Below, piece after piece: positions 1 through 7,500 of a stretch of DNA of 64,000 bases (the first letter of the stretch is position 1; every line of letters starts with the position of its first letter). The stretch is from a virus. Made by a program: the position numbers and the translations under genes. Below the pieces are notes generated by a model. It did not search any database and was not told the origin of the DNA. It was given only the letters and a program-made list of their open reading frames with translations. The stretch spans positions 1 through 64,000 of IMG/VR virus record IMGVR_UViG_3300028840_004626; one strand, given 5' to 3'.

Positions 1-285
1 TCTCTTCAGGATACTCCTGGGTCTATGAATCCAATCTCAGCATACGTTCTCGCTGCCCAGAGCGTCCTCCAGCTGCTTAAAATGGGTGAGGTGGTGCTCG
101 TACACTGTCAAGCTGGAATAAGCCGTTCTACGGCCATCTGCTGCCTCGTACTGGCTATCCTGCATGGACGTACTCTTCAAGAGGCTTTCAACCATATTTC
201 TTCCATTCGGCCGGGTGTTTATATCATGACACACCATTTACCCCTACTCAGACCATCACTTGACCTTCTTAGGGAACTGTTCTAA
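1..285 (+). CDS. Dual-specificity / tyrosine protein phosphatase (5'-truncated by window edge)
   Basis: Catalytic VHCQAGISRS (HCx5R) motif, followed by a typical DSP C-terminus (AFNHISSIRP); frame is open from base 1 (SLQDTPGS..., likely the general-acid Asp loop). Confidence 0.85.
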   Translation, partial: SLQDTPGSMNPISAYVLAAQSVLQLLKMGEVVLVHCQAGISRSTAICCLVLAILHGRTLQEAFNHISSIRPGVYIMTHHLPLLRPSLDLLRELF

Positions 286-1577: not shown

Positions 1578-1972
1578 TGGATCCACACGAGAAGGAAGCA
1601 AAAAGTAAAATCGCGGAAATTAAGGCGCGAGAAGAACAAGAAAAACGAGGATGGGGAAGAATTTATAGAATAAGTCCACAGATTTGGGCACAGTACAGGA
1701 AGAATATCGAGTACGTAGGTACGCGAGGAAATAATCTCGACCTGTTGGCGCACAAGATTGTAGTGACGCACGGGGCTAAGCCCTACATTATCCCACCCTC
1801 TCATCACTTTAGCTGTTATATTATCCAGGTTAATGCACCGTGTATCTATGTCCTCGCCAAATTTCCAGGAGAATGGGAAGGGTTTGAGCCGATTCCGTCA
1901 GATACGGGTGATGTAGAATTGATAGATCTCCTACCGATGAGCGAGATTAGGCCAGAGTTATACAATGAGTAA
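1577..1972 (+). CDS. Hypothetical protein (131 aa)
   Basis: Translationally coupled (TAATG) with GAGGAG RBS. Confidence 0.7.
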   Translation: MDPHEKEAKSKIAEIKAREEQEKRGWGRIYRISPQIWAQYRKNIEYVGTRGNNLDLLAHKIVVTHGAKPYIIPPSHHFSCYIIQVNAPCIYVLAKFPGEWEGFEPIPSDTGDVELIDLLPMSEIRPELYNE

Positions 1973-2255
1973 AAAAGAGAGATCGAAGCCCAATGAGCCC
2001 GTAGATTATGTTTTAGATGGCCTATGGGACTTGATCACGCGAATTAATACACACGACAAGAAACACCTCGGCAATAATATGCTAGAGAAGTATGATTACT
2101 TTGCCCGACATGGCAAACAGGGTCGAAATTGTACATATGGCCTGAAGGCCAAACAGATGTTTATGATTTACGATTGGCCCGATGTAAAAAAGCAATTGAA
2201 GAAGATTGTCGAATATATTAGGACAATCCCCGGAAGTGAGAATTTCGCCAAGTAG
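1965..2255 (+). CDS. Hypothetical protein (96 aa)
   Basis: Overlapping operon-style arrangement. Confidence 0.65.
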   Translation: MSKKERSKPNEPVDYVLDGLWDLITRINTHDKKHLGNNMLEKYDYFARHGKQGRNCTYGLKAKQMFMIYDWPDVKKQLKKIVEYIRTIPGSENFAK

Positions 2256-2259
2256 TGAA

Positions 2260-2442
2260 GTGTCACAAGCAATCGAAGATGCACTAGTAGCTCTAAGACA
2301 GGTAATGGAAGAAAATGAGAAGAGCAGGTATAGCCAGATATTCTACGAGCACGAACAGCGCAGACTGGCTGCCATCAGACAGGTTGGCGAGCAGTGTATC
2401 TTTTTGTTCGCATATCAAGGAGTTATAGATGTTGGCGTATGA
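2260..2442 (+). CDS. Small protein with shared C-terminal tag (cassette member A); start uncertain (2206/2236/2260)
   Basis: Ends in YEHEQRRLAAIRQVGEQCIFLF, which aligns without gaps to the three downstream ORFs. Confidence 0.65.
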   Translation: MSQAIEDALVALRQVMEENEKSRYSQIFYEHEQRRLAAIRQVGEQCIFLFAYQGVIDVGV

Positions 2443-2872
2443 TGTGTCAGAACCAAGGACGAACCAACCAGAGGAAGAGGGTTGGGAACGGGGGTATGGG
2501 TTCGAGTATAGGCTGACGTATCCGGTTCAGCCAGCAGCGGGGAGCTATACGATTACCTACTCGAATGGGACGAGAGAATATACACAAGAAGAATGGGCAG
2601 AAATGTCTAGACAAAGACAGCCGGAACAGATTTACTATCTCTACCCACATCCCACAGATGGATATATCCGAGATGAGCACACTGGGCTTAATATGGTTGG
2701 TGATCAGTGGACAGAAGAACAACTCACCGAGATGGATCAGAGGTTCATAGAGAGATATGGGAGGAGTAATCCACATTTACATTTTCCAACCTATATCGAA
2801 GTACAGAGAGAGATGAATAAGAAAATGAAAAAGGGTAGACAGCTTGTCTTTGCCTTTATAAGAGAACTATAG
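2429..2872 (+). CDS. Small protein with shared C-terminal tag (cassette member B)
   Basis: AGGAG RBS; C-terminal YIEVQREMNKKMKKGRQLVFAF. Confidence 0.75.
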   Translation: MLAYDVSEPRTNQPEEEGWERGYGFEYRLTYPVQPAAGSYTITYSNGTREYTQEEWAEMSRQRQPEQIYYLYPHPTDGYIRDEHTGLNMVGDQWTEEQLTEMDQRFIERYGRSNPHLHFPTYIEVQREMNKKMKKGRQLVFAFIREL

Positions 2873-2879
2873 GAGATTT

Positions 2880-3236
2880 ATGCCATTAGAGCCAGCCTAC
2901 AGAGATAACTATTTAGTGGTAGGTAGTGGATACATTCAGTCAGAGGTTCCGACGCTAGAGAGTATTGGCGAGCGTGATTTCATACTGGAGACTGTTGTCT
3001 CATCTGGTGTCATCTATTACGATGATATGAATGATTGGCTAAATCCGAATTTCCGAACGGTTAGCAGCGCTGAGATTTGGATACCAGCACACGGAGATAT
3101 TGTACACGGTAGTGGAACGTTCTATGGCGTGAATAGAAGGAAAGAGCCTAGCTATCTAGAATTACAGAGAAAGATGAATAAAAAGACTAGAAAAGGGAGG
3201 CAGCTAAGGTTATATTTGGGGGAAGAGAGTGCCTAA
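2880..3236 (+). CDS. Small protein with shared C-terminal tag (cassette member C)
   Basis: AGGAG RBS; C-terminal YLELQRKMNKKTRKGRQLRLYL. Confidence 0.75.
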   Translation: MPLEPAYRDNYLVVGSGYIQSEVPTLESIGERDFILETVVSSGVIYYDDMNDWLNPNFRTVSSAEIWIPAHGDIVHGSGTFYGVNRRKEPSYLELQRKMNKKTRKGRQLRLYLGEESA

Positions 3237-3693
3237 TTACGAAGATACTCCACAACCTCAGCGACCCTGTGTGTTGCTCCGTAATGAAACTGGTGGACTA
3301 GAACGATTTTTCGCAGATGACGATGGGGTTATTCGTGTGCCTCCTGGCAACTGGGAGACAATGCAGGCAGAATATAGTATTCCAGAGGATGTTCGAGTGA
3401 TTTCGGGTAGCGGCATCAACGAAACAGTCATACAGGACTATAGAGAGGAAGTAGAGCTCGAAGAGGCGATCCGGGATGCATTCAATAGGATCGTTCAGGC
3501 ACCAGCGCGTCCGAATACACTATTTCTGCATCCAAGCGTAGCAAGAGAGTTGAATTTATTGAGTGATGAGCGGAGAGCATTGAAGTATGCAAGAAAACAG
3601 CGTAAGATAGGAAAGAGAATGGAAGTGGGAAAGCAGATCCCGTTTTTATTTATTACCCGACCCCAAAGTGCACGGGAGTTGGCGATCACTTAA
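3229..3693 (+). CDS. Small protein with capsid-like peptide and shared C-terminal tag (cassette member D)
   Basis: IRDAFNRIVQAPARPNTLFLHP matches the MCP segment; C-terminal YARKQRKIGKRMEVGKQIPFLF. Confidence 0.75.
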   Translation: MPNYEDTPQPQRPCVLLRNETGGLERFFADDDGVIRVPPGNWETMQAEYSIPEDVRVISGSGINETVIQDYREEVELEEAIRDAFNRIVQAPARPNTLFLHPSVARELNLLSDERRALKYARKQRKIGKRMEVGKQIPFLFITRPQSARELAIT

Positions 3694-3705
3694 GTGGGGA
3701 AGTAC

Positions 3706-4569
3706 ATGTCTGAAGAAAACACTACTGATAAATTAATGAAGCTCAACGGAAGCATAATTAAGTCTGATGGAAGCCACGTAAAGTCTGATTTTTTCAAGTT
3801 TCTTGAGATCAATCTAGATGATTACTCAGATATTGAGTACACCCCAGAAGAGGCCCAGAAGATTCGCTCTCATATGTCTCATCTCTCAACGGGGGCTACA
3901 GCCGTATTGCCCCTCAAGTGTGCGGGGCCTGTTCGCTGCCCATTTGCTGCAAGGTGTCCATTCGTAAAGATAGATAAAGAAAGAAAGAAAAAAGACCCTA
4001 ATGCGAAACAGATGACCCCGGTGACCAAGGATTGCTTAGTGGAGATTAATCTGTTGAACGAGTGGACTAGATTGTATGTAATGGAGTTTGATGTCCCCGA
4101 GAAGAGCTTTTTAGAGCTAATGATGTGTAGAGAGCTGGCAGAGATCGAAGTGATGCTTTGGCGGCTCAACAACAATTTGTCCAAAGAAGGAAATGCAAAT
4201 CTGGTAGACAATGTGGTGATGGGCGTAGATAAAGAGGGCAACCCATTGATGCGCCTAGAGAAGAGCGCTTTCCTAGCAGCAAAAGAGCAACTGACCAATA
4301 GGAAGTCAAAAATCATAAAGGCGATGGTTGGAGATCGACAGGAGAAGTACAAGAAGGAAGCAGCATTGAAGATCAGGGAAGAGAAAGATCCGAGTGTATC
4401 TTCTGCTAAGTTGCGCGGCGAAATCAATCGTCTGCTGAAACAGGCGGAAAGCAAGGTGTTGGCGCTGAAGGAGAGCGAAGGGGATGTCATCGATATCACG
4501 ATGGATCAAATGGACAAGGAGAAGACCGTAACGCCAGAGTCGATAATTGACGAAGTGTCTGAGGAGTAG
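3706..4569 (+). CDS. Cys-cluster protein, putative terminase small subunit
   Basis: CAGPVRCPFAARCP...CLVE Zn-type cluster followed by a helix-hairpin-helix oligomerisation-like region; first gene of the packaging/structural block, upstream of TerL. TerS role is inferred from position and architecture. Confidence 0.5.
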   Translation: MSEENTTDKLMKLNGSIIKSDGSHVKSDFFKFLEINLDDYSDIEYTPEEAQKIRSHMSHLSTGATAVLPLKCAGPVRCPFAARCPFVKIDKERKKKDPNAKQMTPVTKDCLVEINLLNEWTRLYVMEFDVPEKSFLELMMCRELAEIEVMLWRLNNNLSKEGNANLVDNVVMGVDKEGNPLMRLEKSAFLAAKEQLTNRKSKIIKAMVGDRQEKYKKEAALKIREEKDPSVSSAKLRGEINRLLKQAESKVLALKESEGDVIDITMDQMDKEKTVTPESIIDEVSEE

Positions 4570-4577
4570 TGAGTTAG

Positions 4578-7500
4578 TTGCCAATTCGGGATTTCCTGAA
4601 TCTTTCTCAAATCCGACAAGCGACAAGCCCTGACGAATTGCTGAAACGTTTGCAGCTTGGGGCTCAGGCACTTTCTGTACAATTTAGCGAAGAATTCGAG
4701 CCGGAATGGCGCGAACGTGCTGGCAAGTGGGGTATTAGCTACAATCCTAATACTCGAGTACTTAGCGCACCAACCTGGGCCATCCGGTCTAATTTCGAAA
4801 GCCCAGAGGCCATAAAAGAATTATGGGGAGGGCAGAGGCCTGGCGCCGACCGGATTACTCGCTTAGCGCGCGCAGTACAAGCACACGAATTAGCTGAAGC
4901 TTTTTATCTAGAACAATACGGCGCTACTCATCCTCGATTTAGCTCGCATGTGGCGCGTGATGTTATTCGAGCTGAAATAGGCGTAGCCGCGCAGATGGGT
5001 AAGCAAACCCTGTTCGATATGTTGAAATTCAGACAGGTTGAGCTGGATTATATGCAGCAGTCAGGAAGATTCAATCCATCGTTTAGCCCGCCGCGATTTA
5101 CAACATACAAGACAGACATGTTAAGGATCATGCAGGATGTTAGAAATTGGGCAGGAAAGCAATCTGGAACCACGTTTTCTCAACAGCAATTAGCCGAGCT
5201 AAACAAAAATATCATTAGCAATTTTTCTGATTTGCCTATTCACAGATATTACACATCGATGAGCAAAAGACGTATTGGTAAAATCGGGCTGGGAATGGCA
5301 GCAATAGCCGCTGGCTACTATTCTCTTTTTTCTGGATCGGACGATCAATCCAATGTTGTTCAGGGTATGCAGGAGGGCGGCTTTGCATCCCAACTCCGCA
5401 AGCTTGAAACAGACTTTGGTAGCGGATATCAGGGACAAGAGGGCCCATCGTCTTCAACAGCCACCAATATGGCTTTTGGTGCAGTGTTGGGTGGAGCGGC
5501 AGGATTTGGAATGTCTCGTATGCAGGCTCAGGCCATTATCGAAGAAGACCTGAGTGCATATCCTAGATTGCAGGAATTAAGAAAGATGGGCGCCCGTGGG
5601 GGGTTCGCTCTATATGCGCCCGAGTTTACGGAAATTCAGCAAATTCGTAAGCGTATGCCATGGTGGTCTAGGCTCGATCCACAAATGTACAATCCTATTG
5701 AGGCAATGAAGATCCTAAAGACGCCCGAAGAGTTGTTGAGATTTAAGGGTGTTGCCTATCTACATGAACCCCCGAATTTTTCAGAAGAGATTTGGAAACA
5801 GGCGCTTCGATCTAAAAACATCCTGGGTATGTTTGAACCCGAAGTGGGCACAAACAAGTTAGCAACCTATGAGTGGCTGTCTGAACGCCTGGGTGGAGAC
5901 CAGCTCGCATCTCGAATTCATCCACATACGGTTGGATTTGATCGCTTACCTATTGTGCCATCGGCTCATAGGTCTACCCTATTGGCGGAAATTAAAAAAC
6001 TCAATCAGGAATGGCCCCTCATCATAAAACATGCCGAGGGATCTTTACAGAAAGATGTTTATCTAAATGTGGCAAATATTCCCGATGAGGCTCTCGATGA
6101 CATGCTGAAAAACCCCAAAGACTGGGTTGCACAAGCTAAGCTAGATCTTGCGGATGAATTTCGTGTTGTGACAGTAGGGGACAAGCCGGTTTTCACAGTA
6201 CATCGCTGGGGAACCGAAAGAATGAAGCCTTTTACGGAATTTGCCAAGAAGATTCCTGGCCTAGGTCGAGTTCTGGAAGCCAATCGTTTTCCAGAGAACC
6301 TTTTCGGCGTTAGAGACGAAGAACTACGTGGTCGTCTTGAAACTTTCGCAAGCAAGGTATCGAAGCAGCTACCATATGAGGTTGGCGCATTTGACATTGG
6401 ACTTACTACCGAGGGGCAGTTAAAAGTCATTGAGGCCCAGAGATACTTTGGAACAATTAGAAATCCACTAGTTATTGAGCGCATGACCCAGACTCTTACC
6501 GGAGGCCCTTCGTTTTATGGTCGATTAGCTCGGGGTATGGGTGCTGTAGGTGCAGGCATTCTCGTTGGGGCCGGGATGGCAGCACTATTGAGTAGTGATA
6601 CGAATACTGCTGAAATTACCTCAGATCCAAAATTTATTCTGGCCGAAAATAAGAATTTCGATGGGTTTTGGGAAGATGGTATTGCGGCGCAACTTCGCAA
6701 GGCAAATACCCCCTTTGGTTCTGGCGTTAATCAATTTAAAGTATTGCGCGGATTAGTGCGTGGAGCACTGCAGCAATCCAAGGGCGCTGGGCAGAAAATT
6801 AGACAAAAGATTATAGAGAGAGTTGTCACACCCTTTAAAGAAGGTATGCGCGAGAGCATGGGGGCCCCCGCAACTTTTGAAGAAGCGCTACGTCGCGGCA
6901 AGCAAGTGTCTGTTCTTGGCGAAGGTCTGTATGCGGAATCATCTCTTATGAGAACGGTGTTCCAAGGTCAAGAATATCAGTATGTTCGTAAAAGATTGTT
7001 GCCAGATGCTCGTAAACGAGTCGAGGAAATGATTCGTAATCCTAGGGGACGCTATGAGCCCGGGGCCACAGATCTGATGGGTCGTGCAGAGGTTCCGCTT
7101 GAAACATGGCGCAGGTATCTGCGGGGACTGAACCTGGAGACCGAGGCCAATGTAATGCGGCGCATTGAGGACCTCAATATCGCCCCTAAAGTCTATGCCT
7201 CGTCTCGTCGCGAAATATTTATGGAATATATTCCTCATAAAACCCTTGGTAAGGCGATTATGGATGGTGATGACGTTACCCAGGGAATTATGCAGATTCG
7301 CAAGGCTATGGGGCGTCTATCAGAAGAACATAAAATTTGGAACCTAGACCCAACAGAATTTAACATCATGTTTGACCCCAAAAATAAAAAAGCCTTCTGG
7401 TTGGATTGGGGTTTGGCTGAAAGATATGCAAGATATGGGTTTAAGGCACCTCAGGCAACTACGCGGATGCATCAGGTATTTGGCACGTATCTTAAAAGAG

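Follow-up and report, generated by a model that had tools for sequence, protein, structure and literature searches.

A short shared tail on dissimilar phage proteins is already known in kind. In phage T4, gp43 carries a C-terminal tail that binds gp45. The unrelated T4 proteins gp33 and gp55 also dock on the clamp by a common peptide (PMC9690074), and MuC and Mor of phage Mu are regulators using a clamp-docking motif (PMC12867686). The hexapeptide form of the beta-clamp-binding motif is Q-phi-x-L-x-L (bioRxiv 10.64898/2026.05.27.728225). Bacterial motifs of this type include the pentapeptide QL[S/D]LF and the hexapeptides QLVLGL of Pol IV, QLSLPL of Hda and QVELEF of Pol III alpha. The capsid-targeting sequences known in phages are N-terminal and cleaved; that of the T4 type is a short peptide removed by the prohead protease. 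Cassettes of small ORFs have been described in the head-morphogenesis region beside genes for polyvalent proteins, which are large multi-domain proteins predicted to be packaged and delivered with the virion; these small ORFs encode recognisable polyvalent-protein domains, and a recombination role has been suggested for those beside kinase-bearing polyvalent proteins (Iyer, Burroughs, Anand, de Souza and Aravind 2017, PMC5512222).

The locus analysed here belongs to an uncultured myovirus (IMG/VR record IMGVR_UViG_3300028840_004626). The window, i.e. the whole stretch of 64,000 nucleotides that was analysed, represents the first 64 kb of one virus contig of 94,548 bp, all genes of which are oriented on the + strand. 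The 5' end of the contig falls within a gene and a terminal overlap is absent; CheckV gives a completeness of about 50%, and the whole genome is estimated to be near 190 kb. The virion genes found in the contig encode a large terminase, a portal, an HK97-type capsid protein, a tail sheath and a baseplate J protein. The terminase best resembles those of phages of about 180-230 kb, such as Moorella phage MTATph1 and Bacillus phage 0305phi8-36 (identity 28-33%). The 3' 30 kb of the contig is occupied by glycan-synthesis genes and an actin homologue; this actin-family gene (L011:11518-12558, contig positions 75518-76558; Pfam Volactin, E 1.6e-57) adjoins an island of about 18 kb that encodes glycosyltransferases, sugar-nucleotide enzymes, methyltransferases and an acetyltransferase. 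No tRNA genes were found within the window. Identical sequence occurs in metagenomes from sediment and seawater, and a marsh metagenome has a piece of 222 nt, in every case as DNA contigs. Besides these, 32 nt of window positions 2185-2220 are matched by a separate 285-nt contig in two metagenome runs; this contig has a 4-nt deletion relative to the window, unrelated flanks and an approximately four times higher depth, and is probably the sequence of an unrelated organism.

Four consecutive small genes of this phage, here called A to D, encode proteins with dissimilar bodies and one common segment of 22 residues, the tag (Table 1). For gene A, the gene caller picked the GTG at 2236, with TTG 2206 and GTG 2260 as alternatives; the earlier sequence-only reading of this DNA had begun the gene at 2260, which this call does not bear out. 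Genes A and B overlap by 14 nt and C and D by 8 nt, B and C are separated by a gap of 7 nt, and D is followed with a gap of 0 nt by a gene for a 291-aa protein; the four genes are translationally coupled. In all four, codon usage in the annotated frame matches that of the phage and gives a coding signal. The bodies are acidic, with pI values of 4.5-4.7, and their lengths upstream of the first residue of the tag, a Tyr, range from 36 to 121 aa.

Table 1. Positions of the four tag-carrying genes and of the two genes that flank them (window coordinates)
Feature	Position	Strand	Protein	Body	Tag	Net charge of tag	Residues after tag	Remarks
Gene A	2236..2442	+	68 aa	short, acidic, helical	2344-2409	0	10
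Gene B	2429..2872	+	147 aa	acidic, net -11	2792-2857	+4	4
Gene C	2880..3236	+	118 aa	acidic, net -7	3153-3218	+7	5
Gene D	3229..3693	+	154 aa	acidic, net -9	3586-3651	+6	13	GTG start
Left flank of slot	1965..2255	+	96 aa					conserved; hhalign probability 73%, E 3e-5
Right flank of slot	3694..4569	+	291 aa					unassigned function; 36-60% identical in 28 IMG/VR and metagenome loci

The tags of the four proteins align without gaps to the motif Y-x3-QR-x8-G-x-Q-h-x-h-x-h, in which Y, Q, R, G and Q are invariant, and end in the hexapeptides QCIFLF (A), QLVFAF (B), QLRLYL (C) and QIPFLF (D). The strict pattern Y...QR........G.Q[h].[h].[h] has exactly four matches in the six-frame translation of the 94,548-bp contig, all on the + strand and inside the real ORFs A to D, whereas a rough estimate from typical residue frequencies gives an expectation of about 0.001 matches in six frames. 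The similarity sets in abruptly at the invariant Tyr. When local scores were compared with those of shuffled sequences, tag pairs reached z values of 3.8-12.4 with the exception of A and C (z = 0.4), but similarity of the bodies upstream of the Tyr was undetectable for every pair (z = -1.5 to 1.7). BLASTP within the genome connected the four proteins via the tag alone. The sequence-only reading, which had reported four consecutive ORFs with one ungapped motif, dissimilar bodies and the Gln of the terminal hexapeptides at positions 2392, 2840, 3201 and 3634, was therefore correct in these points. In a leave-one-out HMM search over 4,778 six-frame ORFs, B, C and D were found at 2e-9, 4e-6 and 3e-4, respectively, but A was not recovered. 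By these comparisons A is the weakest member, and its membership rests on the strict pattern and on the score of its tag against that of D (z = 8.5). The description of the tag as terminal proved wrong, since in each protein a few more residues come after it (Table 1). These residues are coded by DNA that contains the Shine-Dalgarno sequence or the start of the next gene, which probably accounts for the residues beyond the tag.

The conserved tag positions 1, 8, 15 and 22 fall on a heptad, and the half from Tyr to Gly reads as an amphipathic basic helix. Structure prediction added little. The AF2 model of A is one long helix (pLDDT 80, pTM 0.39), and that of D (pLDDT 52) places the first nine residues of the tag at the end of a helix. 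With a single sequence as input AF2 tends by default toward long helices, and for this reason we gave the model of A little weight. The ESM Atlas models of B and C (pLDDT 0.43 and 0.34, respectively) had no usable neighbours. Since the predictions for the bodies are too low in confidence to inform on this point, the bodies of A to D may share one fold.

Comparison of the tags by codon position showed that the segment is kept by selection on the peptide and not on DNA or RNA. The mean pairwise identity within the tag at codon positions 1, 2 and 3 is 0.57, 0.57 and 0.39, respectively, and that of the 66 nt directly upstream is 0.21-0.24. The invariant Arg is coded by CGC, AGA, AGA and CGT and the invariant Gly by GGC, GGT, GGG and GGA among the four tags; over the whole tag, identical residues are coded differently in 24 of 48 pairs. 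Two changes set the tag of D in the marsh contig apart: one is synonymous, and the other replaces V by A at a position that is not conserved. RNAalifold found no pairs in the tags and thus predicted no conserved RNA structure, and promoter-like and terminator-like sites were no commoner than in shuffles. Because the synonymous sites in the tags are saturated, the copies are considered to be old. The similarity of the B and C copies at the DNA level, which had been put forward as a further observation, is indeed present; it does not add evidence, however, because it follows from amino-acid identity and not from recent gene conversion. Between these two tags the identity is 0.77 and 0.82 at codon positions 1 and 2 and 0.45 at position 3, and 6 of the 12 codons for identical residues differ.

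We then looked at how far the four proteins and their tag extend beyond this locus. Models of Pfam, PHROG and NCBIfam gave no match for A to D. No homologue of B, C or D was found among proteins of similar length in a word-indexed set of 5.8 billion proteins; the sole matches within this set were letter-identical copies of the three proteins in other assemblies. A comparison of gene B with GenBank phages gave no homologue either. By these searches A to D all class as ORFans. The tag profile detected no carrier beyond A, B, C and D among 1.84 billion representative proteins, and its three further weak matches were false positives (repeat proteins and an FN2-like protein). The tag HMM and regular expressions, applied to the six frames of the contig and of 28 related loci, gave no fifth carrier; back-translated tag patterns found nothing beyond A to D in IMG/VR, and the profile found nothing among PDB sequences. 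Judged by sequence, the tag is new, no like motif being present in the databases searched. The half of the genome that is missing is unlikely to hold more carriers, as the protein collections include the samples that hold this phage. The address-tag system that the sequence-only reading had put forward thus shrinks to four genes. Against the docking explanation given below, the tag occurs in this phage only and gains no support from comparison.

The genes on either side of the cassette are conserved. In all other relatives in which both flanks can be seen, the homologue of the 96-aa gene lies directly upstream of that of the 291-aa gene and the slot between them is empty, with the exception of L013 and L030, which have inserts. 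In L013, the closest relative (60% identity), the slot holds one unrelated 86-aa ORF (L013:901-1161), and in L030 it holds three unrelated small ORFs, one of them a Cys-rich ribbon (L030:4213-4968). As it is either empty or filled with unrelated ORFs between two conserved genes, we regard the slot as hypervariable and accessory, and as the same two flanking genes are adjacent in relatives, A to D (window 2236-3693) represent an insertion. Where the locus extends far enough, the 291-aa homologues are followed by the gene for a polyvalent protein, small Gly-rich genes and the large terminase gene. By eye, the layout of the 86-aa ORF of L013 resembles that of the tagged proteins, with an acidic body, a basic stretch led by Tyr and a Gly-hydrophobic end; it was rejected as a fifth member, as it is without the invariant Q, R and Q and its hhalign probability is 0.3%.

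Several other features of this region were observed. Gene D ends with TAA at 3691-3693, and the GTG listed as the start of the 291-aa gene comes next in that frame; comparison with L013 suggests that the true start of this gene is likely ATG 3707, preceded by GGGGAAG. Upstream of the slot, window positions 1-285 belong to a gene for a dual-specificity protein phosphatase (Pfam DSPc, E 5e-10), which is also found upstream of the slot in the closest relative (L013:184-672); compared with L013, only this phage has the ORFan genes 492-1577 and 1577-1972 between the phosphatase gene and the slot. The N-terminal module of the polyvalent protein varies among the relatives. In most of them it is exonuclease-like with F-D-I-E-A-G-G (L002:3417, L003:8789, L006:1736, L007:2495, L008:3832 and L009:3227), and window 4578-5177 and L013:2028-2837 share another module with a conserved H-E-x-A-E. 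A linker consisting of a hydrophobic helix and S-G-x-D-D-x-x-N-x-I-x-G occurs in the polyvalent protein at window 5280-5450 and 6650-6730 and in up to five copies in relatives, as in L002:4500-7007; it may mark a boundary between modules or a site of processing. The terminases encoded at L001:12324-15509, L007:7790-10459, L009:7714-10842 and L010:11741-14320 are interrupted in frame near residue 130-135 by about 350 aa that look intein-like; the terminase of the window (673 aa) is without this insert.

The explanation that we tentatively favour, with slightly less than even confidence, is that A to D form an accessory cassette whose shared module docks or assembles the four proteins on a common partner or on each other, with the sliding clamp as the leading candidate for that partner. 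The cassette is a lineage-specific one and occupies the hypervariable slot that shortly precedes the module for the polyvalent protein and packaging. Each gene joins an acidic body, either fast-evolving or unrelated to the others, to the same 22-residue module, which is envisaged as a basic amphipathic helix starting from Tyr-x3-Gln-Arg, followed by the invariant Gly, the invariant Gln and phi-x-phi-x-phi. Whereas the architecture, the conservation of the peptide, the uniqueness of the tag and its place in the slot are observed, we infer that this module serves as a docking or assembly element, and the 4-13 residues that trail it are probably by-products of the overlap with the ribosome-binding site or start of the next gene.

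The DNA sliding clamp is the leading single candidate partner because the final hexapeptide has the spacing of a clamp-binding motif. As in the bacterial beta-clamp motifs, the hexapeptides of A to D have an invariant Gln with hydrophobic residues at +1, +3 and +5 and sit close to the end of proteins that are otherwise unrelated. Among the 76 proteins of the contig, five have a hexapeptide with this spacing in their last 25 residues, and four of the five are A to D. Position 1 is Q in all four; position 2 is L, L and I in B, C and D and Cys in A; position 6 is F, F, L and F. The hexapeptide of C fits the bacterial clamp consensus exactly. The proposal of the sequence-only reading that the segment is clamp-binding-like thus stands as regards the Q-phi-x-phi-x-phi spacing, but does not extend to the whole tag: position 4 is L in C only and F in A, B and D, and, unlike in the bacterial motif, 16 of the 22 tag positions, the invariant Y, QR and G among them, are not part of any clamp-binding motif, and further residues come after the tag. 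The other partners named in that reading, a capsid-packaging receptor or a protease, are equally hypothetical. No clamp gene was found in the contig, about 50% complete as it is, or in five relatives, and PF09116, PF02768 and PF00705 are absent from the contig. The arrangement proposed for A to D is like that of the gp45-binding tails of T4, in which unrelated phage proteins reach one hub by one short hydrophobic tail. The T4 gp33 and gp55 tails, however, are of the LDFL type and stand at the extreme C-terminus, whereas the tags of A to D differ in sequence and are followed by trailing residues. A gp45-like clamp was not found in the 94.5 kb in hand, and by their sequences the tags are not members of the T4 gp45-binding tail family.

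The strongest competitor, which we hold to be rather doubtful, is that A to D are one diverged family of paralogues that arose by an old tandem duplication of a small, A-like helical gene. The tag would then be the sole constrained part, with no external address; it could be a self- or hetero-oligomerising helix, while the bodies would have changed by drift, growth or shrinkage until their relation was no longer recognisable. The four genes are adjacent and co-oriented, arrays of ORFans are common in plastic phage regions, and the saturation of synonymous sites agrees with old copies. The heptad spacing of the conserved tag positions, together with the AF2 models of A and of the first nine tag residues of D, would also suit an oligomerising helix. 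However, a long helix is what AF2 gives by default for a single sequence, and the Pro in the last part of the D tag makes an uninterrupted helix less likely. The wide range of body lengths, the body scores, which do not exceed z = 1.7 for any pair, and the sharp boundary of identity at the tag also speak against this explanation.

Another explanation, which seems to us quite improbable, is that the tag is a virion-loading signal which binds the procapsid interior, the scaffold or the portal, so that A to D would enter the particle and leave it along with the polyvalent protein encoded nearby. A single gene separates the cassette from the downstream gene for this 1093-aa polyvalent protein, and the genes for terminase, portal and capsid protein follow about 6 kb downstream; such a position would suit this role, as does the packaging and delivery predicted for polyvalent proteins (PMC5512222). 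In this position the four genes also resemble the small-ORF cassettes of that report, which cluster by a large, probably virion-delivered multi-domain protein in the head-morphogenesis region; unlike those, A to D do not encode recognisable polyvalent-protein domains, and they share a tag that is absent from the polyvalent protein. Two weak local matches were found as well. Between gene B and the N-terminal module of the polyvalent protein, 111 residues can be aligned (pairwise E 9e-6), the alignment ending in a tag-like G-K-Q stretch, and in gene D 12 of 22 residues are identical to a segment of the capsid protein. The former match, with a shuffle p of about 0.03, is lost once the closest homologue of the module is added (hhalign probability 0.3%), and the latter is real but marginal, as D scores equally well against two or three other unrelated proteins. 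A and C showed no similarity to the structural or polyvalent proteins, and the notion that A to D might be scraps of structural proteins is unproven. Moreover, all structural proteins, like the polyvalent protein, are without the tag, and relatives package their genomes without the cassette. The N-terminal position of the known capsid-targeting sequences is a further difference: the shared segment of A to D lies near the C-terminus, and their N-termini share nothing.

We regard it as very improbable that the small ORFs are recombination cassettes, i.e. spare N-terminal modules of the polyvalent protein, with the shared segment as a homology patch for swapping, along the lines of the published suggestion (PMC5512222). 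That module does vary between relatives, the window and L013 having the other form, and the weak match of B with its G-K-Q end concerns the same module. On the other hand, the third-position identity of only 39% leaves no usable DNA homology, the tag HMM does not match the polyvalent gene, the conserved gene between the cassette and its target would be lost in a swap, and contigs from three studies are without rearranged joints. A nucleic-acid element (attachment-site-like, a regulatory RNA or a translational signal), to which the location of the repeats 12-39 nt before each stop and near the start of the next gene might point, is effectively refuted by the different codon families of the invariant residues, the low conservation of third positions, the lack of RNA pairs and the shuffle-level promoter and terminator matches, and with the number of strict-pattern matches far above expectation chance resemblance is hardly credible either.

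A bolder form of the docking explanation, which we consider unlikely as it stands, would take the tag as a private address of this lineage by which four acidic effectors, themselves unrelated, are connected to one hub; the most attractive hub would be the sliding clamp of the host or of the phage. The helix of the tag would add lineage-specific affinity to a minimal clamp-binding hexapeptide, and the accessory functions of A to D would be linked to DNA under replication shortly before the late genes are expressed. The general weight of the observation is limited, as it comes from one genome and the relatives are without the tag. If the tag is a docking peptide, A to D would provide a small and clean case of unrelated accessory proteins of a phage that bear a tail specific to the genome and recognised by one hub. 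As there are only four carriers and the unit has 22 residues, this case would be readily testable, and it could reveal the hub that is targeted by an uncultured sediment phage.
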